This document shows positions 786 through 55,663 of a DNA stretch of 64,000 nt, in pieces. The translations under genes were made by a program, and so were the position numbers. The notes beneath the pieces were generated by a model. It did not search any database. It was not told where the DNA came from and saw only the letters and a list, made by a program, of their open reading frames with translations. Each line of letters starts with the position of its first letter. Within the stretch, counting starts at the first letter, position 1. This DNA is from Rhodospirillales bacterium (GTDB lineage Bacteria; Pseudomonadota; Alphaproteobacteria; Rhodospirillales; UBA2165), in the NCBI GenBank assembly GCA_965207535.1, contig CBDBMR010000005.1, forward strand, positions 95,905-159,904, written 5' to 3'.

Positions 786-919
786 AATTTTCACGAATTG
801 AGCGCTGCCGGATTGGAGAGGTATGGCATTGGTTGTTGTGACGTCTCCAATGCCAACTAGTATTGGCCAACCAGTATCGCAATGAAATCACTTCGTTAAT
901 TGAGAATACGGGAAGACAG

Positions 920-1929: not shown

Positions 1930-1941
1930 TCAAAACCGGTT

Positions 1942-3953: not shown

Positions 3954-3966
3954 TGGCGGCGGGCTC

Positions 3967-4491: not shown

Positions 4492-4509
4492 TAAGAATAA
4501 TCTCCCGGC

Positions 4510-5571: not shown

Positions 5572-5605
5572 GGTTGTTCCCTGAAGCCGTCTCGCCGGCA
5601 GTCCG

Positions 5606-6013: not shown

Positions 6014-6129
6014 TGGGCTTCCTCACCTGACATGTAGACCCGGGAACCACGCGGTTTGCGATCCGGGTTTGCTCATAGCATACTGGACTATAACCTATTT
6101 TTCCGCTTCCGGGGAGGCTCAGCGGCATT

Positions 6130-6906: not shown

Positions 6907-6945
6907 TCGTCCGGCGAATTTCAGTTTCAGTTGGGAGGTTCCGTC

Positions 6946-10010: not shown

Positions 10011-10976
10011 TTAGTTGGAGGCCAAGCCCTTGATCATGTTCTTGTAGGCCTTGCTCTGCATGGGACGGCGCTTCTCGTAATCTTCGCCGCTCTCAAAGTT
10101 CGCAACCTCGCCGATGGCCTTGATCAGACGCAGGTACGTCTTGTCTTTCTGGATCGCAACCATGGCATCGCGGAGTTTCTTCAGGCGGTCGGCGGGAATG
10201 CCGCGCGGCGCCATCAGGATGCGGTGCATCTGACCGATATCGGCGGTGTAGCCCAGATCCTTAAAGGTCGGCACCCCTTTGAAGTCGCTCTTCTGACCGG
10301 CGCTGATCAGGACACGTACCTTGTCGCCCTGGCCGAGAATGGTCGACTTGAACTGCATGGTGAAGTCGGCTTCGCCACGCAGGAAACCGGCCATGGAGGG
10401 TCCGCCGCCTTTGTACGGCACCATGACGATCTTGTCGGCGATGCCCGCTTCGGTGAACAGCTGCAGGGCCGGCGCGTGGGTGGCGCCCCAGTTGCCCGAA
10501 TGGGCGAACTTGACCGTACCCGGCTTCGCTTTGGCCGCCGCCACGAGATCCTGGAACGACTTGAACGGGCTGTCGGCGCGCACGATGATCGAGAAGAAAC
10601 CGGAGTTCAGCTTCGCGACGGTGACAAAATCCTTGTCGGTGTCATAGGGAAGCTTCTTCACATGCTTCTGCAGTTGATCGAAGTAGTTGTGCGAGAACAG
10701 CAGGGTGTACCCGTCCGGCTTTGCCTTGGCGGCGGCAGCCGTACCGGTCTGGCCCGACGCGCCCGGCATCAGCTTCACGATCATCGCATTGCCGAGATAC
10801 TGCGGAATGACGGAGGTGAACACCCGCGCGTTCCGGTCGTGAGATCCGCCCGCACCAAGGGGCATGATCATGGTAATGGGCTTCTCGGGAAATTCGGCCC
10901 GGACGTCATTGACGCCGAGCAGACCGAATACGAGAAGGGCTCCCAGAAGTAGTTTGGACAAATTTGCTATCCGCAT
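10011..10976 (-). CDS. tctC: Tripartite tricarboxylate transporter (TTT) substrate-binding protein (TctC/Bug family)
   Basis: Signal peptide MRIANLSKLLLGALLVFGLLGVNDVRA followed by EFPEKPITMIMPLGAGGSHD..VPYKGGGPS. GAGAGGAAAG precedes the ATG at 10976. Confidence 0.85.
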   Translation of the reverse strand: MRIANLSKLLLGALLVFGLLGVNDVRAEFPEKPITMIMPLGAGGSHDRNARVFTSVIPQYLGNAMIVKLMPGASGQTGTAAAAKAKPDGYTLLFSHNYFDQLQKHVKKLPYDTDKDFVTVAKLNSGFFSIIVRADSPFKSFQDLVAAAKAKPGTVKFAHSGNWGATHAPALQLFTEAGIADKIVMVPYKGGGPSMAGFLRGEADFTMQFKSTILGQGDKVRVLISAGQKSDFKGVPTFKDLGYTADIGQMHRILMAPRGIPADRLKKLRDAMVAIQKDKTYLRLIKAIGEVANFESGEDYEKRRPMQSKAYKNMIKGLASN

Positions 10977-11057
10977 TGTCTTTCCTCTCTGTTGGTCGTC
11001 TCTCTTCAATAGTGTTCCCTGTAAAACAGGGGCGGTAAATCATTTTGTGCCTGCCAA

Positions 11058-11071
11058 GTCTTATATAAGAC
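11058..11071. promoter_or_regulatory. Operator-like perfect palindrome GTCTTATATAAGAC (site 2 of 3)
   Basis: Perfect 14-bp palindrome (16 bp with the flanking A/T), 82 nt upstream of the tctC start. Confidence 0.55.
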
Positions 11072-11114
11072 TATATAGCACGCCTCAGGGTCAAGTGCAC
11101 CCCGGCATCCTTCA

Positions 11115-12638
11115 TCAGTGCGCGGCGCCTTCACCAAACCTCTGTCTGAGCCGGTTGTTGCGGCGCCACATCAAATATGTCAGCAACGGTGTCAACGCCA
11201 GGATGGCTGCGGCCGCTGGACGCTCCAACGTAATGAAGGTCAGCAGGTCCCCCTGCGCCAAGGTCACGGTCTGACCAAAGGAATATTCGAGTGTCGGCCC
11301 CAGGATGAAGCCCATGGCCATGGGCGTCACGTCGAAATGCAGTTTTTTGGCCACGTATCCAAAAACGCCGAAGAACACCAGGACGGCCAGATCGAAGGGC
11401 TGTCCCCGGAACACCCACGAGCCGGCAAACGCGAACACCAGTGTCAACGGCAACAAAAATGACTTCCTGATCGTCACTACCTTGGCGAAGAAGGGAATGC
11501 ACAGGTAGCCGATGAACAGGAACAGAATGTTTGCGAGAATAATGGAGAGCAGAATGGCAAAAACGAGCGAGCCCTGATCCTCCATGAGTTGGGGGCCGGG
11601 CCGCATGCCATGCGCAATGAACGCGCCGACAAGAATGACCGTGAGGTTGTCGCCTGGAATCCCGAGGGTAAGGAGCGGCACCAGTGTCGGCCCATTTACG
11701 GCGTTGTTCGCAGCTTCCGCGGCCGCCACTCCTTCAAGCTCGCCTTGGCCAAATCTCTCGGGGTGATCGGACGCGCTTTTGGCCGCGGCATATCCCATAA
11801 ACGCCGCGACGACCTGGCCAACGCCGGGCACCATCCCAATGGTCGTGCCGATCACGGTGGACCGGCCGATCGTACGAAGACAGCTCTTGAATTCGGCAAA
11901 GGTGAGGCGTTCTCCGGAGACCTTCAATCCCTCGGCGCTGATGATCTGGGATGCTTTTTTCTCGATGCCGGCAAAAATCTCGGGAAGCGCAAACACGCCG
12001 ATCAGCATGGGCAGCAGCGGGATACCGGATTCCACCGACGTTATCCCGAACGAGAACCGCGACAGCGCGCCGATGGGATCCTGACCGACCATGGCGAAGA
12101 ACAAACCAATGGCGAGCATCAGCAGGCCTTTGACAAATACGCCGCTGGACGTAGCTGAAATGACAATCAACGCCAAAAACAGGACGGCGGCCAACTCCGG
12201 CGGTCCCATAAGAAGCGCGACAGCGGCGATGGGACCGATCAGGGCAATGGTGAAAATGTCACTCGCGGTGTCCCCGATCACCGATGAAAACAACGCTGTC
12301 TCCAGGGCCTTCCGCCCTTTCCCCTTTCTGGTCAGGGGCGGACCGTCGAATGTGGTCGCCACGGCCGCGCCGGTGCCCGGCATCGACACCAATATGGCAG
12401 GGATACTGCCCCCGTAAATTCCGCCCTTATAGACGCCGATCAAAAACGGAATCCCCAGCAGGGGGTGAAGAAAGAACGAGATAGGCAGCAAGATCGCCAT
12501 CGCCATCAATGTGGTGAAACCGGGCAAGGCGCCGACGAACATGCCAAGGAACAATCCGGCGGCAATCAGAAGGAACGTCATCAACACCGTTTCCGGGTTA
12601 AACAGGATCCCAAATCCGCCTAGAAATGCTTCGAACAT
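11115..12638 (-). CDS. tctA: TTT transporter large permease (TctA family)
   Basis: 507-aa polytopic membrane ORF with a TctA-like sequence (GALPGFTTLMAMAILLP, GIPGDNLTVIL). Confidence 0.85.
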   Translation of the reverse strand: MFEAFLGGFGILFNPETVLMTFLLIAAGLFLGMFVGALPGFTTLMAMAILLPISFFLHPLLGIPFLIGVYKGGIYGGSIPAILVSMPGTGAAVATTFDGPPLTRKGKGRKALETALFSSVIGDTASDIFTIALIGPIAAVALLMGPPELAAVLFLALIVISATSSGVFVKGLLMLAIGLFFAMVGQDPIGALSRFSFGITSVESGIPLLPMLIGVFALPEIFAGIEKKASQIISAEGLKVSGERLTFAEFKSCLRTIGRSTVIGTTIGMVPGVGQVVAAFMGYAAAKSASDHPERFGQGELEGVAAAEAANNAVNGPTLVPLLTLGIPGDNLTVILVGAFIAHGMRPGPQLMEDQGSLVFAILLSIILANILFLFIGYLCIPFFAKVVTIRKSFLLPLTLVFAFAGSWVFRGQPFDLAVLVFFGVFGYVAKKLHFDVTPMAMGFILGPTLEYSFGQTVTLAQGDLLTFITLERPAAAAILALTPLLTYLMWRRNNRLRQRFGEGAAH

Positions 12639-12653
12639 CGATTAAGCGCCGCC

Positions 12654-13241
12654 CTAAAATACCGACTTGTTGCTGAGCCACTTCAACGGCTCATAAATTA
12701 CCCAGTTGCTGGGAACGGCCTCATCTATCGGAAACGGCGGCAACGACGTTACCAGCACCTTCGTAAACAGCATAAACAGCGCAAAGGGTACGATGATGGA
12801 GACCAGCGCGCCCGCCCAATAGTTGCGGTTTCCGAAATAGGTCGAGACCACGAAGATCATGATCATGCTGCCCGCCACGAAACCGATATTGACCATGAGC
12901 CAGACATAGCCGGCCATGCAGGCGGCGGTCACCGCTACATTCGTAATTGCTTCGCGGTCGAGATCGCGAAGTTCATTCCGTTGACGCAGCGACCGGCTTT
13001 TCCAGAAAAACCAAATACCGAGCACGAATATGCCGACGGCGATGACCTGGGGGAAGAGTTCCGCCGGCAGGGAGACGTCTCCGACGACGCGAATGAGCGG
13101 CTTGTCGACGTGATCTGGAATGAGAACCCATAGGGCGATCGACAGCGCAACGAAAATCAGCGCGGCGACCGAATTATAGTTGAGATGCTTCTCGGACGTT
13201 TCTGTTTCCGTATCGCCCAACTGAGGCTTCCCTTCCATCAA
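12654..13241 (-). CDS. tctB: TTT transporter small membrane subunit (TctB family)
   Basis: A small four-helix membrane protein directly upstream of tctA. The assignment rests on position and hydrophobicity, and the start is uncertain. Confidence 0.65.
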   Translation of the reverse strand: MMEGKPQLGDTETETSEKHLNYNSVAALIFVALSIALWVLIPDHVDKPLIRVVGDVSLPAELFPQVIAVGIFVLGIWFFWKSRSLRQRNELRDLDREAITNVAVTAACMAGYVWLMVNIGFVAGSMIMIFVVSTYFGNRNYWAGALVSIIVPFALFMLFTKVLVTSLPPFPIDEAVPSNWVIYEPLKWLSNKSVF

Positions 13242-13337: not shown

Positions 13338-13466
13338 CGCGGTGGTGTACTTGTCCGCCCTGATCGAGTCAAGGGCCCGGACCGGCGAACCCCCCGGCCA
13401 AAAGCGAGCTTAACGAATAGTACGAAAACAGTATGATCCTCAACATTCCCGATAGAATTATCTGAA

Positions 13467-15084: not shown

Positions 15085-16044
15085 ATGAGTACCCAGGTAG
15101 CCGTTACCGATACCGTTTTTCCCAGCCTCGACCCCGCCAAGGAGGCCCTGTCCCGCGTCGATGCGGAACTCACGCTCGCTTCCGAGCCGACCGTGGAGGG
15201 CATCCTGGAGGTGGCCGCCGATGCCGACGCTCTGCTGGTCACCTATGGCCAGATCAACGCCGACGTCATTGCCGGGCTCAATAACTGCAAAGCCATCGGC
15301 CGGTTCGGAATCGGCACCGACAACATCGATATCGGGGCGGCGGCCGGGAAGGGAATCGTCGTCACCTACGCGCCGGTCTATTGCCTGGACGAGGTTTCGG
15401 ATCACGCGATGGCGCTCCTGCTGTCCGTGGCCCGCAAGATTCCGTACGCCAACAACCTGGTCGCCGACGGCCGTTGGGAAATGCCGGCGGTGGTCCCGAT
15501 CGCGCGGCTCCGGGGAAACACCCTCGGCCTCCTGGGCCTCGGCAACATCCCGCAGCAAATTGTCGGCAAGGCGCAGGCGTTCGGCATGAACGTCATTGCC
15601 GCCGACCCGTACTGCCCCGATGAAGTCTTTGGGAAGCTGAATGTCGCCAAGGTCGAGTTTGACGATCTCCTGGCGCAATCGGACTACATTTCCGTCCACG
15701 CGCCGCTGACGCCCGAGACCGAGAAGATGTTCAACATGGACGCCTTCAAGAAGATGAAGAACACAGCGTTCCTCATCAACACCGCGCGCGGACCCCTGGT
15801 CGATACCGCAGATCTGGCCGCCGCGCTGGACGCGGGCGAAATCGCCGGCGCCGGCCTCGACGTGTTGCCGTCCGAGCCGCCGGCCGCCGATGACCCCATC
15901 GTCGGGCGGGACAATGTGGTGATCACCCCGCACACCGGGTTCTACTCCGAAGACGCCTTGCTGGATCTGCAGACCACGGTCGCCAGCGACGTCGCCGCCG
16001 TACTCGCCGGCGAGGAGCCCAAATATCCCGTGAAGCCCCGCTAA
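15085..16044 (+). CDS. D-isomer-specific 2-hydroxyacid dehydrogenase family protein
   Basis: LGLLGLGNIPQQIV NAD motif, SDYISVHAPLTPET, NTARGPLVD and a TPHTGFYS catalytic His region. Confidence 0.85.
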   Translation: MSTQVAVTDTVFPSLDPAKEALSRVDAELTLASEPTVEGILEVAADADALLVTYGQINADVIAGLNNCKAIGRFGIGTDNIDIGAAAGKGIVVTYAPVYCLDEVSDHAMALLLSVARKIPYANNLVADGRWEMPAVVPIARLRGNTLGLLGLGNIPQQIVGKAQAFGMNVIAADPYCPDEVFGKLNVAKVEFDDLLAQSDYISVHAPLTPETEKMFNMDAFKKMKNTAFLINTARGPLVDTADLAAALDAGEIAGAGLDVLPSEPPAADDPIVGRDNVVITPHTGFYSEDALLDLQTTVASDVAAVLAGEEPKYPVKPR

Positions 16045-16125: not shown

Positions 16126-16962
16126 ATGACTTCTCCCATGGTGGATTCCGCTTGGCTTGCCGAGCATCTGGACGATCCGGGGGTTCGCATTATCGAGGTT
16201 GAATCGGACCCCGAGGGAAAGGCCTACGACGAGGGACACGTTCCGGGCGCTATCCGCTGGTTTTGGAAGGACCTTTGCTGGCACGAGACCGACCGCCAGT
16301 TCGTGACGCCGGATGAGTTGGCCAAACGGCTCGGCGCCGCCGGGATCGGCGACAAGACCACGCTGGTTCTTTATGGCGATCCGGTTCAGTACGGAAACTA
16401 CGCCTTCTGGGCATTGAAGATGGCCGGCCATCCCGACCTGCGGTTGCTCGACGGCGCCCGCAGGAAGTGGCTTGCGGACGGTCACGAATTCACCACCGAC
16501 GTTCCCGCGTATGAGCCGGTCGGGTATACGCCCGGAACGCCCGACCAAACCATGCGTCTCGGGCGCGAGGCCGTGCGCGAGCGCCTGGGCGACCCCGGGC
16601 GCTTCCTGTTGGACGTGCGGACGCCCGAGGAATATTCGGGCGAACGGGTGATGGAGTACGGCCAATTCGACCACGGCGCCGAGCGTGGCGGCCGCATCCC
16701 CGGCGCCAGGCACTTGTTCTTCAAGGAACTGCTCAATGGCGACGATACCTACAAGAGCCCCGAGGAACTGAGCGCCAAATTCAAGGAAGCGGGCGCCGAC
16801 CCCGGCGACGCCGACGAGATCGTCGTCTATTGCCGCCTCTCCCACCGGGCCACCCTCGCCTGGACCGCCATGGCGCTGATCCTGGGCTGGGAGAACATCA
16901 AAATCTACGACGGTTCGTGGACCGAATGGGGCTCGATCGTCGGGTTTCCTGTCGAAAGGTAG
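16126..16962 (+). CDS. Rhodanese-domain sulfurtransferase (thiosulfate/3-mercaptopyruvate sulfurtransferase-like)
   Basis: Tandem rhodanese domains with the active-site loop VVYCRLSHRAT and GHVPGA / GRIPGA motifs. Confidence 0.85.
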   Translation: MTSPMVDSAWLAEHLDDPGVRIIEVESDPEGKAYDEGHVPGAIRWFWKDLCWHETDRQFVTPDELAKRLGAAGIGDKTTLVLYGDPVQYGNYAFWALKMAGHPDLRLLDGARRKWLADGHEFTTDVPAYEPVGYTPGTPDQTMRLGREAVRERLGDPGRFLLDVRTPEEYSGERVMEYGQFDHGAERGGRIPGARHLFFKELLNGDDTYKSPEELSAKFKEAGADPGDADEIVVYCRLSHRATLAWTAMALILGWENIKIYDGSWTEWGSIVGFPVER

Positions 16963-19261: not shown

Positions 19262-19759
19262 TTACGCGTCGCGCAGAACGGCCTCGAAGAACATCAGGGT
19301 TTCCTCGGCGAAGCGCCACATGTTGTCTTCGCGGTCCGCGTGGCCGGTTTCGATGGTGACGGCCCGCTCCAAGGGGCCGGCGGCCGCGATGCAGGTGTGT
19401 CCCGCATCGTCACCATAGCGATTGCCGGTCGGCCCGGCGGCGCCCGCTTCAGCCAATCCCCAGGTCGTGCCCAGCTTCTCGCGAACGGCGGCGGCGGTCA
19501 GCTTGACAAACGGTTCGGAGGCCGAGCGCACACCCGGATGGTCGTCGAGATCGACCTCGAGAAACACGTCGCGCGCCTTGTGGGTATAAATCACCCCGCC
19601 GCCCATGAAGTAGGCCGAGGCGCCGGGAATGCTGAGAAGCGCGGCGGCAACCAGGCCGCCGGTGGACGATTCGGAAACCGCGACCGTCTCGCCGCGGTCC
19701 TTGAGAAGCCGGCCGACCGTCTCCGCCAAGGGCGTCAGTCTGCGGATAGGGTCGGCCAT
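19262..19759 (-). CDS. CinA/PncC-type (nicotinamide-nucleotide amidohydrolase-like) domain protein
   Basis: TVAVSESSTGGLVAAALLSIPGASAYFMGGGVIYTHKAR...GLAEAGAAGP are hallmark CinA C-terminal domain motifs. The start at 19759 is 8 nt after the upstream gene's stop. The track's longer ORF overlaps that gene out of frame. Confidence 0.8.
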   Translation of the reverse strand: MADPIRRLTPLAETVGRLLKDRGETVAVSESSTGGLVAAALLSIPGASAYFMGGGVIYTHKARDVFLEVDLDDHPGVRSASEPFVKLTAAAVREKLGTTWGLAEAGAAGPTGNRYGDDAGHTCIAAAGPLERAVTIETGHADREDNMWRFAEETLMFFEAVLRDA

Positions 19760-19767
19760 CCCGAACG

Positions 19768-20790
19768 CTATTCGGCCGGCAGATATTTCTGCCGGTCGCT
19801 GCGGTCCTTCGACTTGATCGCCGCCAGGACCTTCTCCGCCGTCGCCGGCAAATTGTAGATCCGCGCGCCCACGGCGTCGTAGATGGCGTTGCAGATCGCC
19901 GCCGAGGTGGCGACCGCCGTCGGCTCGCCCACACCCTTGGCGCCGAACGGTCCCGTCGGGTCGAAGTTCTCGACGATGTCGACCTCCAGGTCGGGCATGT
20001 CGAGGCTGGTCGGCATGATGTAGTTGGTGAGATTCGGATTGATCTGTTTGCCCTCGTCGTCGAACAGCATCTCTTCCTGGATCGCCATGCCGACTCCCAT
20101 GGAGATACCGCCCTGAATCTGACCTTCGACCAACATCGGGTTGATCGCGGTACCGCAATCGTGGGCCGCCGCGATTCGCAGAACCTCGACCTCTCCGGTC
20201 TCTTCGTCCACCTCGACCTCCGCGATCTGGGTCGCGTAGACATAGGTGGAGAACGGCTTGCCCTGGCCGGTTTCCGGATCCATCGCGACGGTCGGCGGAT
20301 TGTAGGATGCGGACCCCAGCGCCGGCGTGCCGGCGCCGTTCTGCGCGTGCGCAGCAACCTCGCCGATGGGCAGGCAGGATTGCGGGAAGCCCTTCACCTG
20401 GATCTGCCGGTCCTTGGCCTCGAGCTGGTTGGGACGGACGCCCAGCATCGGCGCCGCGACCTCGAACAGGATGTTCTTGGCCTTTTCGGCCGCGAGCTGG
20501 ATCGCGTTGCCGGTGACATAGGTCGTGCGGCTGGCGATGGCGCCCGTATCCATGGGCGTCGCGTCGGTATCCGCCGAAACCACATGCACGTCATCGGTGG
20601 AGATGCCGAGTTCCTCCGCGGCGATCTGGCCGAGGACAGTGAGCGAGCCCTGGCCCGTTTCCACGGTGCCGGTGATCAGGGTCGCGGTGCCGTCCTCATT
20701 GACCTTCACCGTCGCCGCCGACGGGTTGGCCATCACGGTAAACCCGATCGGATACCACATGCAGCCCATGCCTTTTCCGCGCTTTTTCAT
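19768..20790 (-). CDS. Molybdenum hydroxylase (xanthine dehydrogenase/aldehyde oxidase family) Mo-binding subunit, C-terminal half (M-like subunit)
   Basis: 340 aa: GMGCMWYPIGF...TGTVETGQGSLTVLGQIAAEELG...DTDATPMDTGAIASRTTYVTG...NPMLVEGQIQGG...GAKGVGEP. This corresponds to the second half of a CoxL/XdhB-type subunit. Confidence 0.85.
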   Translation of the reverse strand: MKKRGKGMGCMWYPIGFTVMANPSAATVKVNEDGTATLITGTVETGQGSLTVLGQIAAEELGISTDDVHVVSADTDATPMDTGAIASRTTYVTGNAIQLAAEKAKNILFEVAAPMLGVRPNQLEAKDRQIQVKGFPQSCLPIGEVAAHAQNGAGTPALGSASYNPPTVAMDPETGQGKPFSTYVYATQIAEVEVDEETGEVEVLRIAAAHDCGTAINPMLVEGQIQGGISMGVGMAIQEEMLFDDEGKQINPNLTNYIMPTSLDMPDLEVDIVENFDPTGPFGAKGVGEPTAVATSAAICNAIYDAVGARIYNLPATAEKVLAAIKSKDRSDRQKYLPAE

Positions 20791-22178
20791 TGGCCGTCCT
20801 CCTTCCAGCCGAACCGCTCGGCGGCCTTTTCGAGGGAGTCCTTGACAACCACGCTTTGCAGCACTTGGCCGGTCGGGCTGGCGGAACCTTCATGGAAGGC
20901 GTTCTTCATCCGCAGCTCCAGCGGGTCGATGCCCAGCTTGTGGGCGATCTCGTCCATCTGGGATTCATAGGCGAAGCACACCTGCGGCGCCCCGAACCCG
21001 CGCATGGCGCCGGTCATGGTCTTGTTGGTGTACATGCAGTAGGCCTCGGCGAGCAGGTTCTCGATATTGTACGGCCCCGCCGACAGAATGCAGGCCTTGC
21101 CCAGGGTGGTTTCGCTCCACGAACAGTAGGCGCCGCCGTCCAGGACGAGGCGAACCTTGCGGGCGGTGATCATGCCGTCGTTGGTAACGCCGGTCTTGTA
21201 CTCCATGATGAACGGGTGCCTGGTCGTCGAGGCGATGAATTCCTCTTCGCGGGTATAGACCATTTTCACCGGCCGTCCCGTCTTCCGCGACAGCAGGGCC
21301 AGGGCCGGCTCGGTGGTGATCTCGTTCTTGCCGCCGAAGTTGCCGCCGACGATGGTGCCGACAATGCGGATCTTGTTGATCGGCATATCGAGCGTGCGGG
21401 CAATGTCGGCCCGGCCCAGGGTTATCCGCCCCAGGCTCGACCACAAGGTCACCCGGCCATTGGGGTCCCACTGCGCGATGGACGCATGAGGCTCCAGCGG
21501 CACGTGCTCGATCATCTGGGTCGAGTAGACGCCCTCGAAAATGTGGTCGGCCTCAGCGAAGCCCTTCTCGAGATCGCCTTTCTTGATCCGCTTGGTCGCG
21601 TAGATGTTGCTGTGCGGCGGATGGACCTTGATCTCGTCTTTCATCGCCTCCACCGGATCGTAGACCGGCTCCAGCGGCTTGTACTCGACCTTGATCCTCT
21701 CGCACGCCTCCTCGGCGATCTGTTCGGTCACCGCAGCCACTGCGGCGACCGGGTCACCAGCGTGGAACACGCGTTCGTCGGCCAGGACCGGCTGATCCTG
21801 ATAGGACGGACCATAGGAATTGACCGGAATTTCCTTGCCGACCAGCACCGCCGCTACGCCGGGCATGGCCTCGGCTTCGGAGGTATCGACGGACTTGATC
21901 AACGCCGAGGAAATGCCGGCCCGCTTCATCTTGGCGAACAGCATGTTCGGAAACGTTATGTCGTCGATGTATTTGGTCTGACCCAGGCCGTGCAGGCGGC
22001 CGTCCGGACGGGTCGCCCGCTGGCCCACCGCCGGCGTCTGGTGCCGCGCCTCGGTATCGATGGTCTCGACCGGAAAATGAGCCGGCTCGACGACCGACGG
22101 GAGACGAAGGTCCTCGTCGGTCTCCTTGAGGTCGGTCAGCGAATCCGTCTTATCGGCGACTTTGACATCATCAGTCAT
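20787..22178 (-). CDS. Molybdenum hydroxylase Mo-binding subunit, N-terminal half (a/b-hammerhead plus first MoCo domain; L-like subunit)
   Basis: 463 aa: GLGQTKYIDDITFPNMLFAKMKRA...GGNFGGK...GAMRGFGAPQVCFAYESQMD. It ends 4 nt into the next gene (ATGA overlap at 20787-20790). Confidence 0.85.
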   Translation of the reverse strand: MTDDVKVADKTDSLTDLKETDEDLRLPSVVEPAHFPVETIDTEARHQTPAVGQRATRPDGRLHGLGQTKYIDDITFPNMLFAKMKRAGISSALIKSVDTSEAEAMPGVAAVLVGKEIPVNSYGPSYQDQPVLADERVFHAGDPVAAVAAVTEQIAEEACERIKVEYKPLEPVYDPVEAMKDEIKVHPPHSNIYATKRIKKGDLEKGFAEADHIFEGVYSTQMIEHVPLEPHASIAQWDPNGRVTLWSSLGRITLGRADIARTLDMPINKIRIVGTIVGGNFGGKNEITTEPALALLSRKTGRPVKMVYTREEEFIASTTRHPFIMEYKTGVTNDGMITARKVRLVLDGGAYCSWSETTLGKACILSAGPYNIENLLAEAYCMYTNKTMTGAMRGFGAPQVCFAYESQMDEIAHKLGIDPLELRMKNAFHEGSASPTGQVLQSVVVKDSLEKAAERFGWKEDGQ

Positions 22179-22201
22179 GGTTCAAGCTCCTCTCTGCGCC
22201 C

Positions 22202-22684
22202 TCAGGCGGCTTCCTTCTCGCCGCGGAGAATGCGCGCCGCATCCTGAACAGCTTCGATCATTTTAGTGTAGCCCGTGCACCGGCAAAGATTGCCGGAGAG
22301 CGCGTCCTTGATCTCTTCCTTGGTCGGATCGGGGTTCCTGTCCAACAGCCCCTTGGCGGAGATGATCACGCCGGGGCCGCAGAAACCGCACTGCAGAGAC
22401 GCGAACTCCTCGAACGCCTTCTGGATCGGATGGAGATCCTCCAAGGTCGCCAGGCCTTCGATGGTGACCACATCCCTGCCGTCCACCTGGCCGGCCAGCA
22501 TCAGGCAGGCATTCACCGGGATACCGTCGACGATGACCGTGCAGGCGCCGCAGTCGCCGACATCGCAGCCGAGCTTGGATCCGGTGAGATAAAATTCGTC
22601 CCGGAGCAACCGAAGCAGGCTGGTCTCCGGCGGCACCGATGCCAAGCGTTCTTCGCCGTTGATGGTGAGCGTAACGTCCGTCAT
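22202..22684 (-). CDS. (2Fe-2S)-binding small subunit of the molybdenum hydroxylase
   Basis: GCDVGDCGACTV...QCGFCGPG...NLCRCTGY, the canonical two-cluster CoxS/XdhC-type small subunit. Confidence 0.9.
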   Translation of the reverse strand: MTDVTLTINGEERLASVPPETSLLRLLRDEFYLTGSKLGCDVGDCGACTVIVDGIPVNACLMLAGQVDGRDVVTIEGLATLEDLHPIQKAFEEFASLQCGFCGPGVIISAKGLLDRNPDPTKEEIKDALSGNLCRCTGYTKMIEAVQDAARILRGEKEAA

Positions 22685-22709
22685 GTCCGTTCTCCTTTTC
22701 TCCGCCCGC

Positions 22710-23579
22710 CTAGTCGTTTTGGGCGAGCCGATAGGCGTTGTCGAGCGTGCGCTTGGTCAGCACGGCAATCAGATCCCGGCGGTAGGATGCCGAGGCGCGG
22801 AAGTCGTCGATGGGCTTGGCGTCCTCGACCGCCAGCCGGCCGGCTTCGGCCATGTTCTCAGGGGTGATTTCCCTGCCCTCGAGGAAATCCTCCGCGGCGG
22901 CCGCGCGGATCACCGTCGGCGCCACGGCGCCCAGGCTTATCTTCACGTCCTTGAAGGTGTTTCCCTCGCCGACCCAGAGGGCGGAGGCGGCATTGACGAG
23001 TGCCAGCGCCTGGCCCTTGCGAAGCCCGAATTTCAGGAAGTCGGTGGGCTTGCCCAGGTTCCTCTTCGGAATGATCACGTCGAGCAACACTTCGTTATGC
23101 TCGAGGATGGTCTTGCGGGGGCCGACGAAGAACTCTTCCAGGCCCATGCGGCGGGTACCGTCCGGACCGGCCACCGTCACCTCGGCTTCGAGCGCCATCA
23201 GGGCGGGACCAGAATCCATCGACGGCACGCACGTGACCAGATTGCCCCCGAGGGTTCCAAGGTTCCGGGTCTGCACCGCGCCGATGGTGTGGGCGGCGTG
23301 AACCAAGGCCGGGAAGTTTTCTTGAATGTAGGGGTTATCCATGATCTCGGTGTGGGTGACCAAGGCGCCGATGCGCAGCCCCTCGTCATTCACCTCGATG
23401 CCCTTCAGGTCTTCGGCCCTCGTAATGTCGACGACCACATCCGGGTCGTGCTTGGCGTGTTTGAGATCGACGAGAATGTCCGTCCCGCCGGCGAGCACGA
23501 TGACGTTGGGACCATGTTCGCTCAAAAGGGAAACCGCCTGACCGGCGGACTCCGCAGATACAAAATCAAAGGCCCTCAT
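22710..23579 (-). CDS. FAD-binding medium subunit of the molybdenum hydroxylase (CoxM-like)
   Basis: MRAFDFVSAESAGQAVSLL...VLAGGTDILVDLK...TLGGNL...SASYRRDL. The start at 23579 was chosen at the first Met of the homologous region. Confidence 0.85.
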   Translation of the reverse strand: MRAFDFVSAESAGQAVSLLSEHGPNVIVLAGGTDILVDLKHAKHDPDVVVDITRAEDLKGIEVNDEGLRIGALVTHTEIMDNPYIQENFPALVHAAHTIGAVQTRNLGTLGGNLVTCVPSMDSGPALMALEAEVTVAGPDGTRRMGLEEFFVGPRKTILEHNEVLLDVIIPKRNLGKPTDFLKFGLRKGQALALVNAASALWVGEGNTFKDVKISLGAVAPTVIRAAAAEDFLEGREITPENMAEAGRLAVEDAKPIDDFRASASYRRDLIAVLTKRTLDNAYRLAQND

Positions 23580-23617
23580 TCCTATTTCCTCTACCGGTCG
23601 AAAGGGTCGGGAACCGC

Positions 23618-24343
23618 CTACTGCACGATCGGCGGGTTCTCGAGTACGGCAAACAAACGTTTTTGGGATTTCCTGATGTGCGACCCGATAAGGCTCGCGG
23701 CCTTGGTCTTGTCGCGCGCCTGGATCGCATCGATGATCGCCGCGTGTTCGGCGACCAGCTTCTCCGCCGAACCGTTTCCTCGAGCCGACGACTGCTGGCC
23801 CGAAACGCCCATGAAAGTCAGGCGGTCGAACTGATCGATTACCTCGCAGGCGGTCTTCGCGAGCCGCGTATTGCCGGACAGCCTGGCGACGGCGGTATGG
23901 AAGTCCCGGTTGTAGGTAACCCATGCGGCGAGGCCGTCGGCATCCACCGCCCGGAAAATATCGAGAGAGGCCAACTCTTCGTCGCTCGCCTCTTCGATGG
24001 CGCGGCGGGCACACGCCTTTTCCATCATTATCCGCATCTCATAAAGCTCCCGCGCGTCGGAGACCGAGACAGGCACAACCCGGTAGCCCTTGCGCGGGAG
24101 TACTTCGATGAGACCCTGCTCCTGAAGCCGGAGCAGGGCGTCCCGGACAGGAGACTTGGAAACCCGATAGCGCTGGGCGAGATCGTTTTCCCGAAGCTGA
24201 GCGCCCGGCAGCAGATCACAGCTCAGAATATCCCGACGAATCTGGTCATACACCGTATCCCGCATCAATCCTTGCGGCTGGTCGTCGGTCTGATCTTGAA
24301 TTTGCGGCTGATCAAGCATTTCGAGCGCTCTCTGAAATATCAC
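23618..24343 (-). CDS. GntR family transcriptional regulator, FadR subfamily (wHTH + FCD)
   Basis: LPGAQLRENDLAQRYRVSKSPVRDALLRLQEQGLIEVLPRKGYRV, then a helical FCD-like C-terminus. It is the first gene of the hydroxylase operon. Confidence 0.85.
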   Translation of the reverse strand: MIFQRALEMLDQPQIQDQTDDQPQGLMRDTVYDQIRRDILSCDLLPGAQLRENDLAQRYRVSKSPVRDALLRLQEQGLIEVLPRKGYRVVPVSVSDARELYEMRIMMEKACARRAIEEASDEELASLDIFRAVDADGLAAWVTYNRDFHTAVARLSGNTRLAKTACEVIDQFDRLTFMGVSGQQSSARGNGSAEKLVAEHAAIIDAIQARDKTKAASLIGSHIRKSQKRLFAVLENPPIVQ

Positions 24344-24563
24344 TGCGAAGAATATCTCAGAGTTTATCTTTCAAAGTCAATAGGAAAAACGGATTTGGCC
24401 CTGAAACCACCCTAATAGCATATTTTCTAAATTTATATTTATTAATCAACATGCTAAATAAATATTTTGGCGAAGATCGCGAGAAAGAAATACCAGAAAA
24501 ATTGGCATGGTGATATTCCACAGCACAATTTTGATATCCCAAAATTAAAATTATTCGCCGAAA
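24344..24563. other. Conspicuously AT-rich 220-bp intergenic island (promoter region of the GntR-hydroxylase operon)
   Basis: Runs such as TTTCTAAATTTATATTTATTAATCAACATGCTAAATAAATATTTT and AAAATTAAAATTATT stand out in an otherwise GC-rich window. On the minus strand, TTGACT-N17/18-GATATT lies about 35 nt upstream of the GntR ATG. Confidence 0.6.
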
Positions 24564-26252
24564 TCAGGTTTTCACTGGGTCGGTTTTGAAGCGGATTTTT
24601 CCGCCCGCCGCGTGTTCCAGCCGGGTAACCGTCCGCCAGCGGTCGTCGTCGGCATCCGGGAAATCCAATCGGAAGTGAGCGCCGCGGCTTTCTTCCCGGG
24701 CGCCCGCGGCGGTTGCCAGCAGCCGGCCCAGGAGCGTGAGGTTGGGAATGGAGAGCGCGCTCTCCAGTTCCTGGCCGAGCGTCTTCGCCGATGCCTTGGC
24801 CGCCGGCGAGAGACGCATCGCCGGAATATCTTCGGCCTCGATTCGCTCATATTCGGCCAGCGCCGCAGCGCATTGTTCGGCATCCCGGATCGGCCCCAGC
24901 TTCTCGTGCGCCAGCATGCGGCAGGCCAGCCGGACCTCGGCCTGGAGGGGGCCCTTCTCCCGCGCCATCAGCGCTTTGAGGTTTTCGGCCGCGTCCTCGG
25001 GAAGGCTTACGGCGTCCGGAGCCCGGTGATCCAAGGAGGCCGCCGCGGCGCCCCGGCCGGACCGGCGGCCGAAGGCCAGGGCGTCCGACAAAGCGGATCC
25101 GCCGATGCGGTTGCCGCCGTGCACGCCGCCCGATGTTTCCCCCGCCGCCCACAGACCATCGATCGGGGTTTCGCCATGAACGCCGATCTTCAGACCGCCG
25201 AGCCAGGTATGACTGCCCGGCGCCACCTCGAGGGGCGTCTCGGTCAAGTCGATCCCCCGGTGCAGGCAGGTCCTGTAGACGTGGGGGATGGCCTTCAAGA
25301 TGGTCTCCTTCGGCACGTGGGTGGCATCCATATAGATGCCGCCGGTGAGGCTGGCGTTGCCGGCGTGAATCTCGCGCGCCATGGCGAGGATCACCTCGCT
25401 CCGGGTACTGCGCTCCGCCGTGTCCGGATAGTAGCGCTTCAGGAACTCCTCGCCGTCCCGGTTCTTGAAGATGGCGCCGGCATTGATGAAGCCGGTCGGA
25501 TGCGGCGCGAAGCCGAACAGCTCCTTCGGTGCGCAGCACATGGCCTGAAAGTCGATCATTTCGATCCCGATCAAGGGGGCGCCGGCCCGGAAGCCGAGGG
25601 CGAAGCCGTCGCCGGTGACCTGGGGCGGATTGTCGTTCACATAGAACAGGCCGCTGCCGCCGCCGGTGCAAAGAATGACCTGGGAGGCCGCATAGGCCAC
25701 GAGGCGCCCTTCCCCGTAATCGACGCCCCAGGCGCCGGCCACCCGGTCCCCGTCCTTCACGAGATCGACAATGGCCGTCAGTGAGTGCTTGTCGATGCGC
25801 GTGTCCGCCCGGAGCCGCTTGGACAGCGTCTTGGTCACCATATTGCCGGTGGTGTCGTGATGGTGCACGGCGCGGGGCAGGGTGTGGTTGGGAAACATTT
25901 TGAGGTCCAATTCGCCGTCGCCGCCGCGCACGAATTCGGCGCCCCACGCTTCCAGGTCCCGGACAATGGGGATGATGTCCTCGCACCAGGCGCGCGCCAG
26001 ATCGGGGTCGATCAGCTCCCCGCCATGTTCAAGGATTTCCTCGAGGTGCTTCCCGGGGGAATCTTCCTTGCCCATGGCCGCCGCAAATCCGCCGCGGGCG
26101 ACCGTGGTCGTTCCGGACGTCGCCCGGCCCTTGGTGACCTGGATGACCGGCACGCCGGCCTCGGCGCATTCGAAGGCCGCCATGGTGCCGGCCGCGCCGC
26201 CGCCGATGATCAGGACGCCGGTCTTGAAGTTCCTGGTTTCCATCCCGGCCAT
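24564..26252 (-). CDS. FAD-dependent oxidoreductase of the succinate dehydrogenase/fumarate reductase/L-aspartate oxidase flavoprotein family
   Basis: GVLIIGGGAAGTMAA dinucleotide motif, GLWAAGETSGGVHGGNRIGGSALSD, and a C-terminal helical domain with ESRGAHFR. Confidence 0.8.
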   Translation of the reverse strand: MAGMETRNFKTGVLIIGGGAAGTMAAFECAEAGVPVIQVTKGRATSGTTTVARGGFAAAMGKEDSPGKHLEEILEHGGELIDPDLARAWCEDIIPIVRDLEAWGAEFVRGGDGELDLKMFPNHTLPRAVHHHDTTGNMVTKTLSKRLRADTRIDKHSLTAIVDLVKDGDRVAGAWGVDYGEGRLVAYAASQVILCTGGGSGLFYVNDNPPQVTGDGFALGFRAGAPLIGIEMIDFQAMCCAPKELFGFAPHPTGFINAGAIFKNRDGEEFLKRYYPDTAERSTRSEVILAMAREIHAGNASLTGGIYMDATHVPKETILKAIPHVYRTCLHRGIDLTETPLEVAPGSHTWLGGLKIGVHGETPIDGLWAAGETSGGVHGGNRIGGSALSDALAFGRRSGRGAAAASLDHRAPDAVSLPEDAAENLKALMAREKGPLQAEVRLACRMLAHEKLGPIRDAEQCAAALAEYERIEAEDIPAMRLSPAAKASAKTLGQELESALSIPNLTLLGRLLATAAGAREESRGAHFRLDFPDADDDRWRTVTRLEHAAGGKIRFKTDPVKT

Positions 26253-26253
26253 C

Positions 26254-27501
26254 TCAGTTGCGGTCCATCAGGCGCCCGAGCTCGGCCACGCAGGCATCGG
26301 CGAATTCCGGGTCGTTGATATGAACGTCCATCTCCTTGAGTTCTCCGGCACTCAATTCGCCGCGGAGCGCGTCCGTGAAGTGCCGATCGGTTTCGGGCTG
26401 GAACCAGGAGCCGATCTCGTTGCCGTCCAAATCGTGGGTCTTGCGGATGGTGTGCTGGCTGAATCCCCGGCTCGGCACCAGAACCACGAACGGTGCCCTC
26501 GACCGGTTCAGGCGCTCGGCGAACATCGTACCCAGCGCCGTCATTTCCTCGGCGTTGGTCCGCATCAAGAGGATTTCCGGATTGTATTGATAGAACTCCC
26601 GGTCCCTGAACCGCTCGGGACACTCGCCGACCCACCAGTTGGTGTGATCGATGGCGCCGGGCGCAACGACCTGCGGCAGGCCGGCCTCCGCCGCGCCCGT
26701 CAGGCGGTCCGGTCCGGCGCTGTAGACCCCGCCGGTCAGCAGGTCGGTCACCTCCGAAGTCGTCAAATCGATCACCCCCGCGAGTTCGCGGCGGGACGCC
26801 AAATTCTCCAGCGCCTTGCCGCCGGGCCCCGAGGCATGAAAGTGCATGACCTCGTATCCCGCGGCCTGCAATTGATCGGTTATACGGTCGACGGCGACCT
26901 GCAGATTGCCGAAGGACGAAACGCCGATCAGCGGCGGGGCCTCCTCGGTCCGGACCCGCTGGTCTTCCCACGATCGCGCCATGGCGGCGACGGCATGCGC
27001 CGCATTTTCCATGATCGAGCAGGTAATCCGGTTCATCACGATATCGCTGATGGTCGGGAACATGGCGATATCGCTCTCGGCCACGTACCACTGCACGGCG
27101 GCCGTAGCCGCGACCGGGGTCACCATCACCTTGGGGAACATGGGCGGCAGTCGGCGCATCATCCCGCAAAAGACTGTACACCCATTGGCCCCGCCGACCC
27201 CGATGGCGCCGGAGATTTCCCCCGCCGCCTGGGCGTTGACCAGCGCCTGGGCGCCGCCGGCAATCATCGCCTCGGCGGCGGCGGAGCGTTCCAGCCCGCC
27301 CAATGCCTCCCAGGTCCGTCCGGCGATCGCAGCGACCTCGCCACCGGTCATCGCCGCCCCCGGCTTGTCGTGGGGCCGGAGGGACAAGTCCAGCAGCCAA
27401 GGCTCGGCACCCGCATCCCGAAGACCGTCGCAAACGTGCCCGGCCGCCTCGGATTTGCTGTCGAGGGTCGCCAGAACGGCAATTCGGACGGGATCGGCCA
27501 T
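26254..27501 (-). CDS. UPF0261 family protein (Tm-1-like N-terminal ATP-binding domain)
   Basis: RIAVLATLDSKSEAAGHVCDGLRDAGAEPWLLD...GIGGANGCT...PKVMVTP. There is a 1-nt gap to the downstream flavoprotein gene. Confidence 0.75.
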   Translation of the reverse strand: MADPVRIAVLATLDSKSEAAGHVCDGLRDAGAEPWLLDLSLRPHDKPGAAMTGGEVAAIAGRTWEALGGLERSAAAEAMIAGGAQALVNAQAAGEISGAIGVGGANGCTVFCGMMRRLPPMFPKVMVTPVAATAAVQWYVAESDIAMFPTISDIVMNRITCSIMENAAHAVAAMARSWEDQRVRTEEAPPLIGVSSFGNLQVAVDRITDQLQAAGYEVMHFHASGPGGKALENLASRRELAGVIDLTTSEVTDLLTGGVYSAGPDRLTGAAEAGLPQVVAPGAIDHTNWWVGECPERFRDREFYQYNPEILLMRTNAEEMTALGTMFAERLNRSRAPFVVLVPSRGFSQHTIRKTHDLDGNEIGSWFQPETDRHFTDALRGELSAGELKEMDVHINDPEFADACVAELGRLMDRN

Positions 27502-27504: not shown

Positions 27505-28344
27505 CTATGCCGGCTTGGTGATTTCTTTGAACCTGGCGGTGACGGCCGGGACCGAATCCTCGATGGGAAACCGCTCGGCGGATGAGCCGCCCACATAGCC
27601 GTCCAGCCGCGGCTCCTTGGCCCAGAACGCGGCGAAGTCCTCCGGGGTCTCGATGGAGCCGCCGTGGCAGGTGACGATCCGGTCGGCGTATTTGGATGCC
27701 AGCGCATCGCAGACGCCGGCGGCGCGCACAACCGCGTCGTCCTCGGCCATCACGGTTTGCGAGCCGATGGTGCCGCCCGACGAGTTGCCGAAATGGACAA
27801 TGATGTTGTCCACGCCCGCCTCGGCCATGGCGAGGGATTCATCGACGCTGGTGCAGAACGCCTTGGTGTAGATGCCTTGGCTCGATGCATAGCCCAGTAC
27901 GTCCACTTCCCTATCGTAACCCATGCCGGTCTCTTCCAGGTCGCCGCGGAACTTGCCGTCGATCAGGGCCACCGTCGGGCAAGCCATGATGCCGTCGAAC
28001 CCGGCAGCCGCGGCGTGATCAACGAAGCGGTGCATGTCGCGGGTCGGATCGACGCACAGCAGCCCGGCCATCACCGGGCAGCGGTCAACCACGTTGATCA
28101 TGGACCGTTCGCCGATTTCGAGGGTGAGTTCGTTGGCGTCGCAGATGGGCAGATACCCGGCCATGGACGAGAGGCCCTGCATCCGGAAATAGGCGAGGTC
28201 ATGGGTGGTGACCATGTCGGCGCCGCCGCGGGCCGCCATTTTTGCGGTGATGCCAGTGCCGCAGAGCGCATCGTAGATGGCGCGGCCCGCCTCCCGCTCG
28301 GCCTGGAACCGCGCGCGAATGGTGTCTCGATCAAATCCGCTCAA
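27505..28344 (-). CDS. Phosphoenolpyruvate hydrolase-like TIM-barrel protein (Tm-1 C-terminal domain family)
   Basis: FRMQGLSSMAGYLPICDAN...PTVALIDGKFRGDLEETGMGYDREV...VHFGNSSGGTIG...CHGGSIETPED...GGSSAERFP. Confidence 0.75.
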   Translation of the reverse strand: MSGFDRDTIRARFQAEREAGRAIYDALCGTGITAKMAARGGADMVTTHDLAYFRMQGLSSMAGYLPICDANELTLEIGERSMINVVDRCPVMAGLLCVDPTRDMHRFVDHAAAAGFDGIMACPTVALIDGKFRGDLEETGMGYDREVDVLGYASSQGIYTKAFCTSVDESLAMAEAGVDNIIVHFGNSSGGTIGSQTVMAEDDAVVRAAGVCDALASKYADRIVTCHGGSIETPEDFAAFWAKEPRLDGYVGGSSAERFPIEDSVPAVTARFKEITKPA

Positions 28345-29275: not shown

Positions 29276-29369
29276 CCCGCCGCGTTTCGCCCGGCGAGGA
29301 TGAATTCGAATTTTTTTGCCGATTGCCGTCTGGCCCGCGTAGCGGCGCGGGCGCCCGAGGAGAAGAATA

Positions 29370-30602
29370 ATGCCCGATACCCCATGGATTTCCGAAAATT
29401 GGTTTACCAGCCCCTGGAACTTCGCCGACGAAGTGACCAAGGACTGGAAGTTCCCCGAGCAGGTCCGCATTCACGACGTCACGCTCCGTGACGGCGAGCA
29501 GCAGGCCGGTCTCGCCTTCGATTACGACGACAAGATCCGTATCGCCGAGGGCCTTGCCGAGGCCGGCGTCCACCGGATCGAAGCCGGCATGCCGGTGGTC
29601 TCCCCCGATGACGCCCGCGTGGTCCGGGACCTCGCCAAGCGCGACTTCGGCCCCAAGATCTATTCCTTCGCCCGCTGCATGGTCGACGACGTCAAGCGCG
29701 CCGTCGATGCCGGCGTCGGCGGCGTGATCATGGAGGTCCCGTCCTCCCAGCACCTGATCGAAAAAGGCTACCGCTGGGAACTGGAGCGGGCCATCGACCT
29801 CTCCATCGAGAGCACCAAGTTCGCCCATGACCAGGGCCTGGAAGTGGTGTTCTTCCCGATCGACTTTACCCGTTCCGATCTGAACTGGGTGATGGACCTG
29901 ATCGAGAAGGTCGGCAACGAAGGCCACATGGACGGTCTCGCGCTGGTCGACACCATGGGCGTCACGTCCGTGCATGCCATGCCGTACTTCGTCCGCGAGG
30001 TGAAGAAGCGGTTCCCGGATGTGCCGCTCGAGGCCCACTTCCACATGGATTACGGTCTCGGCGTCGCCAACACCATCATGGCCGTCGCCGAGGGCGTCGA
30101 GGTCATCCAGTCCACGGTCCTGGGTCTCGGCGAGCGCGCCGGCAACGTGCCCATGGAAGAGACCGTGATGGCGCTCAAGACCCTCTACAACGTCGATTGC
30201 GGCATCAAGACCGAGAAGTTCAAGGAGCTGGCCGACATGGTCGCCGAGGTATCCGGCGCCATCGTGCCCCGTAACCGGCCGATCGTCGGCGACGATCTGT
30301 TCAAGATCGAGAGCGGCATCATCGCCACCTGGCTGTTGAATTGCGGCGTCGGCGAGGATCTCACCACCGTCGTTCCATTCCGCCCCTCGATGGTCGGCCA
30401 GGCCGACCCCATCGCCGTCATCGGCAAGGGCTGCGGCATCGACAACGTAAAGCACTATCTCGACAAGTTCCAGTTCCAGTACACCGAGGAATCCGCCATG
30501 GCGCTCCTCATGGACATCAAGAACTGGGGTCTGAAGCACAAGCGGCTGATGACCGACGACGAGTTCCGCGCCTTTGCGGAAGAGAACTTGAAGCAGGACT
30601 AG
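29370..30602 (+). CDS. HMGL-like / pyruvate carboxyltransferase-domain enzyme (isopropylmalate/homocitrate/citramalate synthase family)
   Basis: IHDVTLRDGEQQAGLAF...GVHRIEAG...LEAHFHMDYGLGVANT, the DRE-TIM metallolyase signature. Confidence 0.8.
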   Translation: MPDTPWISENWFTSPWNFADEVTKDWKFPEQVRIHDVTLRDGEQQAGLAFDYDDKIRIAEGLAEAGVHRIEAGMPVVSPDDARVVRDLAKRDFGPKIYSFARCMVDDVKRAVDAGVGGVIMEVPSSQHLIEKGYRWELERAIDLSIESTKFAHDQGLEVVFFPIDFTRSDLNWVMDLIEKVGNEGHMDGLALVDTMGVTSVHAMPYFVREVKKRFPDVPLEAHFHMDYGLGVANTIMAVAEGVEVIQSTVLGLGERAGNVPMEETVMALKTLYNVDCGIKTEKFKELADMVAEVSGAIVPRNRPIVGDDLFKIESGIIATWLLNCGVGEDLTTVVPFRPSMVGQADPIAVIGKGCGIDNVKHYLDKFQFQYTEESAMALLMDIKNWGLKHKRLMTDDEFRAFAEENLKQD

Positions 30603-34020: not shown

Positions 34021-34139
34021 GGTTCTTCCCTGCAATCCGTCAGACCCAAGAACCGGCGAACCTTCATCCGGGAAAGCCCGCCGGCCTCAACTCTTGTCGA
34101 CATCCGGGGCCCATAACCGGCCCCGGGCCGGGCGCGTCC

Positions 34140-55660: not shown

Positions 55661-55663
55661 GGC

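Follow-up and report, generated by a model that had tools for sequence, protein, structure and literature searches.

A 64-kb stretch of DNA from a Rhodospirillales bacterium (contig CBDBMR010000005.1, positions 95,905 to 159,904; hereafter the window, to whose positions all coordinates refer) carries on its minus strand a compact operon encoding a four-subunit molybdenum hydroxylase of the xanthine oxidase family. A previous interpretation made from the letters alone (the sequence-only reading) had likened this enzyme to the selenium-dependent nicotinate dehydrogenase NdhFSLM of Eubacterium barkeri. Judged by similarity, clade membership and active-site residues, however, the operon enzyme is not an orthologue of that dehydrogenase. 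It belongs to a separate, widespread and conserved clade, and we consider it probable, at roughly 60%, that it is an ordinary hydroxylase with a sulfido-type molybdenum cofactor and that its substrate is a planar aromatic or heteroaromatic acid, most likely other than nicotinate.

The operon and its split molybdenum subunit

The six genes described by the sequence-only reading encode, in order, a GntR/FCD regulator, a flavin adenine dinucleotide (FAD) subunit, a [2Fe-2S] subunit, the N-terminal and C-terminal halves of a molybdenum subunit, and a CinA-like protein. All are present with the positions and sizes given there, and a LigB-type gene does lie 123 nt downstream of the CinA-like gene, as had been claimed (Table 1). 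Domains were assigned with Pfam profiles and equivalog-level identity was judged with NCBIfam models at their own cut-offs, which none of the operon proteins reached. The genes are tightly packed: the regulator gene, co-directional with the operon, precedes the FAD-subunit gene by 38 nt, and the remaining junctions down to the CinA-like gene are 25 nt, 23 nt, a 4-nt overlap between the two molybdenum halves, and 8 nt. The FAD subunit has a single cysteine in 289 residues and thus lacks the [4Fe-4S] insertion of HcrB, and the N-terminus of the small subunit carries no twin-arginine signal. The C-terminal half of the molybdenum subunit is 100% identical to a protein encoded on JAPPFK010000030.1 and 98% identical to one on the 4.56-Mb chromosome OZ243926.1. 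No Rfam family was found at gathering score between positions 17000 and 30000.

Related operons were collected from Alpha-, Beta- and Gammaproteobacteria and Acidobacteria, and neighbors were counted in 80-84 such loci by tblastn with the window proteins together with Pfam checks (loci are numbered L, and representative proteins P). The FSLM core recurs in 72-80 of the 80 loci from these phyla, at identities of 52-84%, and a homolog of the GntR gene (61-96% identity) adjoins it in 12 of 84.

As in E. barkeri, the gene order is F-S-L-M and the molybdenum protein is divided at the same domain boundary. The division is not a frameshift artifact, because the two genes, which lie in different frames and share a 4-nt ATGA overlap, retain this arrangement (ATGA or GTGA) in 67 of about 80 related loci. 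The four-subunit architecture that the sequence-only reading proposed is thus confirmed in its domains, sizes and order, but the kinship that the split was taken to imply is not, since fused proteins are closer to the window enzyme. The characteristic start of the C-terminal half, MKKRGKG..MWY, cannot serve as evidence of a common split either, because fused relatives carry the same motif (KKRGxG..MWY) internally, just past the inter-domain linker.

Relationship to nicotinate dehydrogenase

Among solved structures, the best match for both halves is E. barkeri nicotinate dehydrogenase (3HRD), with 285 bits to 3hrd_A for the N-terminal half and 292 bits to 3hrd_B for the C-terminal half; HcrA (1RM6) is second, with 200 and 207 bits, respectively. 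Identity to the E. barkeri proteins (cluster locus L085) is 33% for F, 53% for S, 37% for L and 45% for M. When the N-terminal half was searched against 1.84 billion representatives of 50%-identity clusters, P0241, which is likewise split and bears the motifs of the window enzyme, came first (59% identity), followed by many fused proteins of about 760 residues (44-50%), and a representative of the E. barkeri clade appeared only at about rank 116 (304 bits). By BLASTP against 150 representatives, E. barkeri NdhL ranked 120th and NdhM sixth, and fused relatives such as P0244, P0245, P0246 and P0249 were 42-47% identical to the N-terminal half and 43-51% to the C-terminal half. The latter is nearer to the C-terminal parts of P0246, P0249 and P0245 (50-51%) than to NdhM (45%).

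An unbootstrapped neighbor-joining tree mixes split with fused forms and places the window clade at a distance from that of E. barkeri. Because fused forms are closer and the two forms intermingle, the split architecture is shared with nicotinate dehydrogenase without being diagnostic of kinship to it, and the proposal that the two halves are NdhLM orthologues does not hold. The clade is common among uncultured members of the Acidobacteria and of three proteobacterial classes (Alpha-, Beta- and Gammaproteobacteria). A tblastn search with NdhL against plasmids returned only relatives at about 41% identity or less, and thus no member of the clade from a cultured or annotated source. Cluster look-ups returned almost no names, and for the fused relatives neither names nor functions. 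The idea that such an enzyme would be unusual in an aerobic alphaproteobacterium was also mistaken, as aerobic Proteobacteria and Acidobacteria harbor the clade in abundance, and E. barkeri-like nicotinate genes have already been described in Alphaproteobacteria (PMC3511419). Our comparisons with known systems draw on PMC5746545, PMC10331938, PMC3511419 and PMC11448449.

An active site unlike that of nicotinate-pathway enzymes

Active-site residues were mapped to bovine xanthine dehydrogenase (XDH) numbering by HMMER alignment and, for the C-terminal half, by way of PMC5746545. So aligned, four positions distinguish the window clade from the E. barkeri clade. At the position of Gln767, the E. 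barkeri clade has Gln208 of NdhL within STQN (120/120 clusters), whereas the window clade reads SSLGRITLG (77/77 loci) and thus carries Gly-Arg, which is Gly250/Arg251 of the N-terminal half. The glutamine lost here is a nearly universal residue that binds Mo=O; of 151 representatives of the family that were aligned, only P0241 and the window protein have LGR instead. At the substrate-binding position Glu802, GGKLD (120/120) is replaced by GGNFGGKNE (77/77), and at the second such position, Arg880, a conserved arginine (120/120) is replaced by the lysine of TTLGK (80/80). Finally, Asn17-Thr18 of E. barkeri NdhM corresponds to an XDH-like Phe-Thr, equivalent to Phe1009-Thr1010, within MWYPIGFT in the window clade (84/84). 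The nicotinate-dehydrogenase type of active site suggested by the earlier comparison is therefore not what residue inspection finds, with Gly-Arg, GGK-N-E, lysine and Phe17 of the M subunit at the four positions.

The difference extends to a second enzyme tied to nicotinate degradation. A fused 915-residue protein from Sulfitobacter, with 33-46% identity to the proteins of the window, matches E. barkeri at each of the four positions (CTQA, KIDLS, Arg and GNT). A signature common to these two pathway-linked enzymes is thus lacking in the window clade.

Other features are retained. The C-terminal half carries the catalytic glutamate in GVGEP and Tyr13, which maps to bovine Phe1005 and has been modeled as the binder of the pyridine nitrogen in nicotinate dehydrogenase (PMC5746545); Tyr13 is, though, present in fused relatives too. 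Fused P0246 shares GGK-NEIT, the lysine and the P-x-G-F-T motif with the window enzyme, whereas the fused relatives of about 760 residues differ in being single polypeptides and in keeping the glutamine. Like bovine XDH and Rhodobacter capsulatus XdhAB, the window enzyme has the same cofactor chain and the equivalents of Phe914, Phe1009-Thr1010 and Glu1261. By analogy with these enzymes, the Phe914/Phe1009 "sandwich" pair, to which the window clade adds Arg251, the lysine and the asparagine, would suit a planar, anionic ring as substrate.

Is nicotinate the substrate?

It could be argued that the operon nevertheless encodes a genuine nicotinate 6-hydroxylase of the sulfur type, which feeds an aerobic nicotinate or pyridine-carboxylate pathway in which the CinA/PncC-like and LigB-like proteins act on pyridine intermediates. 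The structural match to nicotinate dehydrogenase and the retained Tyr13 are in line with this, as are the names given to clade members by automated annotation, the PncC-domain score of the CinA-like protein and the Liv-type ABC transporters found near related operons, which accompany known proteobacterial nicotinate clusters as well. We nonetheless regard it as unlikely, both because the four positions are changed and because the rest of the pathway is missing. E. barkeri Hnr, ApbE, Ena, AA_synth, Mgm, Mii and Dml had no tblastn match (E<1e-5) in the window, nor in any of 84 related loci, each spanning about 20 kb, and the window operon, in its aerobic proteobacterial host, is not surrounded by hnr, ApbE, hgd, ena, mgm, mii and dml as the E. 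barkeri operon is. Genes of the NicC/NicX type, or any others of nicotinate metabolism, were likewise absent from the window and from the 84 loci. An open reading frame (ORF) of 497 codons at 13437-14927 was considered as an Hnr candidate on account of its size and was rejected, since it encodes a polytopic membrane protein.

Where proteobacteria do carry hnr, they appear to rely on other hydroxylases. The three hnr clusters that we examined (Sulfitobacter, Comamonadaceae and Neorhizobium) have either a fused 915-residue or a NicAB-type enzyme and never a member of the window clade, and the same is true of the published clusters of Azorhizobium caulinodans and Bradyrhizobium (PMC3511419). In the Sulfitobacter plasmid locus (L086, 6169-15455), for example, the gene for the fused iron-sulfur and molybdenum protein lies between an enamidase homolog (45% identity) and hnr. 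These hydroxylases are related molybdenum enzymes of aerobic hosts and often have Liv-type ABC transporters near them, but they are fused or of the NicAB type and stand beside hnr, an enamidase-like amidohydrolase and AA_synth genes. The plasmid hnr clusters L086, L088 and L089 additionally carry a ferredoxin-NADP reductase, UPF0280 and two AA_synth genes. Hydantoinase A/B-like genes belong to the Neorhizobium and Pleomorphomonas hnr clusters, for which the stretches shown carry no annotation of an enamidase-like amidohydrolase.

The sequence-only reading had also seen links to pyridine metabolism in the CinA-like and LigB-like genes. The CinA-like protein has an ESxTGG motif and passes the PncC-domain cut-off (TIGR00199, 74.9 bits vs 68.9) but falls well below that of the PncC equivalog (57.5 vs 212), and the LigB-like protein scores 33 bits to the protocatechuate 4,5-dioxygenase beta subunit (1b4u_B) and far under the cut-offs of the NCBIfam subfamily and equivalog models. 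Neither is a conserved partner of the hydroxylase: the former occurs in no more than 5 of 84 related loci, with a threshold as permissive as E<1e-4, and the latter in 4 of 84. Being confined to the nearest relatives, both are lineage-specific passengers, and the supposed links find no support.

Other possible activities

Another possibility is a broad-specificity aldehyde oxidoreductase, similar to PaoABC, glyceraldehyde dehydrogenase or MOP, that acts on aldehydes derived from sugar acids or 2-oxoacids in concert with HMGL, D-2-hydroxyacid dehydrogenase and GFO/SDR neighbors. The MOP of Desulfovibrio gigas likewise lacks the glutamine at the Mo=O position (SIGVH, compared with SLGRI in the window enzyme), and the beta and gamma models of glyceraldehyde dehydrogenase give moderate scores to the FAD and iron-sulfur subunits. 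Moreover, an HMGL-like gene, sometimes directly upstream of ndhF, is the most frequent neighbor not concerned with transport (16/84 loci), followed by a D-2-hydroxyacid dehydrogenase gene beside the operon in 14/84. All of these scores are under cut-off, however, and the alpha-subunit models of MOP, PaoC and glyceraldehyde dehydrogenase rank below those of pucD, XdhA and Hcr. Since these neighbors are variable, and the phenylalanine pair with Lys/Arg/Asn would better fit a planar anionic ring, this function seems improbable.

A reductive enzyme resembling 4-hydroxybenzoyl-coenzyme A (CoA) reductase and acting on a phenolic acyl-CoA is very unlikely, even though HcrA is the second-best structural match, the top NCBIfam match for the C-terminal half is to the Hcr alpha model, and MarK-family, PPDK_N/PEP-utilizer and CoA-transferase genes are nearby. 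The Hcr models give the window subunits 128, 182, 314 and 285 bits, as compared with cut-offs of 405, 258, 995 and 995. In addition, HcrABC has an unsplit alpha subunit and a [4Fe-4S] insertion in beta that is absent from the one-cysteine FAD subunit of the window, whose hosts are aerobic and whose operon has no adjacent CoA ligase.

For an enzyme like that of E. barkeri, with a labile Mo=Se ligand installed via SelD and YqeB, the shared subunit architecture and the best structural match are all that can be cited. This trait, whose accepted genomic markers are selD together with yqeB/yqeC, has been described for purinolytic clostridia, Enterococcus and similar organisms (PMC11448449). Pfam scans of nearly all ORFs in the window revealed no selA, selB, selD, YqeB, YqeC or XdhC domains, and ARAGORN found only a tRNA-Thr there and no tRNA-Sec. 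NCBIfam models of selenium-dependent hydroxylases score far under their cut-offs (TIGR03311, 293 vs 830 bits; TIGR03313, 211 vs 1102; TIGR03312, 62 vs 241), and the second sphere of the molybdenum site is altered by the change from glutamine to Gly-Arg. The window clade is also not the lineage closest to the E. barkeri clade. Given this weak kinship and the aerobic hosts, we allow selenium dependence, which the sequence-only reading had inferred, only a few chances in a hundred.

That reading had further pointed to a putative selenocysteine gene in the window, which we could not reproduce. Long pairs of ORFs in the same frame joined by TGA proved to be adjacent, separate genes, such that the TGA codons are ordinary gene boundaries. 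An example is found at 54365-58501 on the minus strand, where GlcF-, GlcE- and GlcD-like genes (CCG/Fer4, FAD_binding_4 and FAD-oxidase_C domains, respectively) share one frame with only TGA stops between them. Such an arrangement can mimic an in-frame selenocysteine codon.

A xanthine or hypoxanthine dehydrogenase with a split large subunit, which the high rank of the pucD and XdhA models for the N-terminal half, the FT motif and the Phe914 equivalent might suggest, is highly improbable in view of the changes of Glu802 to Asn, Arg880 to Lys and Gln767 to Gly, scores of less than half the cut-offs, the split molybdenum subunit, and the lack of xdhC in the window and of purine-catabolic genes nearby in it.

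A proposed function and its implications

We favor, therefore, an aromatic or heteroaromatic acid hydroxylase with a sulfido-type cofactor. Such an enzyme would be cytoplasmic and under GntR/FCD control, and would act on a planar aromatic or N-heteroaromatic carboxylate imported by the neighboring tripartite tricarboxylate-type or ABC transporters. By analogy with other members of the family, a C-H bond of the substrate would be attacked at a molybdopterin site formed by both molybdenum polypeptides, with the glutamate of the C-terminal half as base. Electrons would then leave the molybdenum site by way of the small subunit's two [2Fe-2S] clusters, reach FAD and be handed to an external acceptor. 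In the Rhodospirillales lineage, the operon has acquired its CinA-domain and LigB-like genes and lies in an island of aromatic-catabolism type. This island of the window includes LigB-like, VOC extradiol-dioxygenase-like, UPF0261/MarK, PPDK_N/PEP-utilizer and CoA-transferase genes, a context that loosely favors an aromatic or heteroaromatic substrate.

Several considerations weigh against this proposal. The clade has no characterized member, and the suggested substrate class depends on residue analogy and on a gene neighborhood that varies. The nicotinate-linked enzymes are only 33-42% identical to one another and to the window enzyme, and divergence alone thus cannot exclude nicotinate. The neighbor-joining tree has short, unbootstrapped deep branches and is indicative only. 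The scan for selD and yqeB covers the 64-kb window only, and no chaperone of the XdhC type for the sulfurated cofactor was seen there. Finally, public records (of the IMG/KEGG type, and some NCBI entries for metagenome-assembled genomes, or MAGs) label clade members "nicotinate dehydrogenase medium subunit".

Such labels are the reason that the distinction matters for automated annotation. Neither a split molybdenum subunit nor a best match to 3HRD identifies a nicotinate dehydrogenase or a selenium enzyme, and the four-position signature separates the pathway-linked nicotinate enzymes from the window clade. It is possible, at slightly less than even odds, that the clade acts on a substrate new to the family in abundant uncultured aerobes of soil, groundwater and the sea, and that the name "nicotinate dehydrogenase" is wrong for thousands of entries. 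Taken alone, the locus holds no surprise, being an operon for a catabolic molybdoenzyme of an ordinary kind. The clade, being widespread and strongly conserved, merits one biochemical characterization and a correction of its labels.

Gene neighborhood

Transporters are the commonest neighbors of the operon, with Liv-type ABC transporters in 24-31 loci and TctC-family genes nearby in 19 of 80. A gene for a polytopic membrane protein of 486 residues (13467-14927, plus strand), next to the tripartite transporter of the window, is kept in L001, L003, L004 and L011 and matches no Pfam or NCBIfam model. Of 84 loci, 8 have the rhodanese gene next to the operon, and to make the rhodanese the sulfur donor for the Mo=S ligand would be pure speculation.

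Table 1. Features of the operon and its surroundings. Sizes are in amino acids (aa); PEP, phosphoenolpyruvate.
Feature	Position	Strand	Basis and remarks
TctC/TctA/TctB tripartite tricarboxylate-type transporter	10011..13241	-	Pfam; candidate importer of carboxylated substrate
D-2-hydroxyacid dehydrogenase	15085-16044	+	Pfam, NCBIfam
Two-domain rhodanese (SseA-like)	16126-16962	+	Pfam, NCBIfam
Divergent LigB-superfamily (class III extradiol dioxygenase-like) protein, 337 aa	18125..19138	-	Pfam LigB 63 bits vs cut-off 26
CinA C-terminal (PncC-family) domain protein, 165 aa	19262..19759	-	Pfam CinA 128 bits
Molybdenum subunit, C-terminal half (NdhM-like), 340 aa	19768..20790	-	MoCoBD_2 291 bits
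Molybdenum subunit, N-terminal half (NdhL-like), 463 aa	20787..22178	-	Ald_Xan_dh_C + MoCoBD_1
Small subunit, 2x[2Fe-2S] (NdhS type), 160 aa	22202..22684	-	Fer2 + Fer2_2; both Cys motifs in translation
FAD-binding subunit (NdhF/XdhB/CoxM type), 289 aa	22710..23579	-	FAD_binding_5 164 bits, CO_deh_flav_C 89 bits
GntR-family regulator with FCD ligand domain, 241 aa	23618..24343	-	Pfam GntR 65.6 bits, FCD 83 bits
Presumed promoter/operator region of the operon	24344..24563	-	220-nt AT-rich intergenic stretch upstream of GntR gene
SdhA/NadB-like flavoprotein	24564-26252	-	Pfam
UPF0261 MarK-family putative aromatic kinase	26254-27501	-	Pfam; PDB 9mpy 183 bits
PEP-hydrolase-like TIM-barrel protein	27505-28344	-	Pfam
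HMGL-like protein, isopropylmalate/homocitrate-synthase family	29343..30602	+	Pfam HMGL-like 218 bits; NCBIfam under all cut-offs
PPDK_N + PEP-utilizer protein	32737-34086	-	Pfam
M24 creatinase-like hydrolase	34140-35393	-	Pfam

Just upstream of the GntR gene, the flavoprotein, UPF0261 and PEP-hydrolase-like genes form a tight trio. Individually these genes are confined to the 4-5 nearest relatives and the full trio to the four nearest, with the PEP-hydrolase-like gene found in L018 as well. MarK itself is an ATP-dependent aromatic kinase (PMC12624787). The pair formed by the PPDK_N/PEP-utilizer and M24 genes stands directly beside ndhF in L082/L083 (L082, 4080-6741) and in L052, and an M24 gene is present in L023. 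Identities within the recurring pair are 57-62% and 80-81%, the latter, unusually high, being those of the M24 protein.

Some lineages have neighbors of their own. In about ten Xanthobacteraceae-type loci (L049, L035, L021 and about seven similar; approximately 500-7000), a molybdopterin enzyme of about 1030 residues resembling AhtL (pyrogallol transhydroxylase/resorcinol hydroxylase-like) is encoded directly upstream of ndhF, accompanied by LysR, two cupins, a subunit with Fer4_11 and CarboxypepD_reg domains, and DoxX. The AhtL-like and cupin neighbors suggest a polyphenol-type context in these Xanthobacteraceae-like MAGs. In the betaproteobacterial loci L024 (6079-8557), L029, L064, L067 and L071, two genes are inserted between ndhS and ndhL. 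These were considered as a possible XdhC-like maturation gene, which was rejected, since they encode a Zn-dependent alcohol dehydrogenase and a protein of the Asp/Glu/hydantoin-racemase family.

Elsewhere in the window, an ergothioneine-type set at 47291-51346 comprises genes for an EgtD-like histidine methyltransferase, an EamA transporter, an N-formylglutamate amidohydrolase-family protein and a GCS2 glutamate-cysteine ligase. A protein of 372 residues without a Pfam match is encoded at 60119-61237 on the plus strand.

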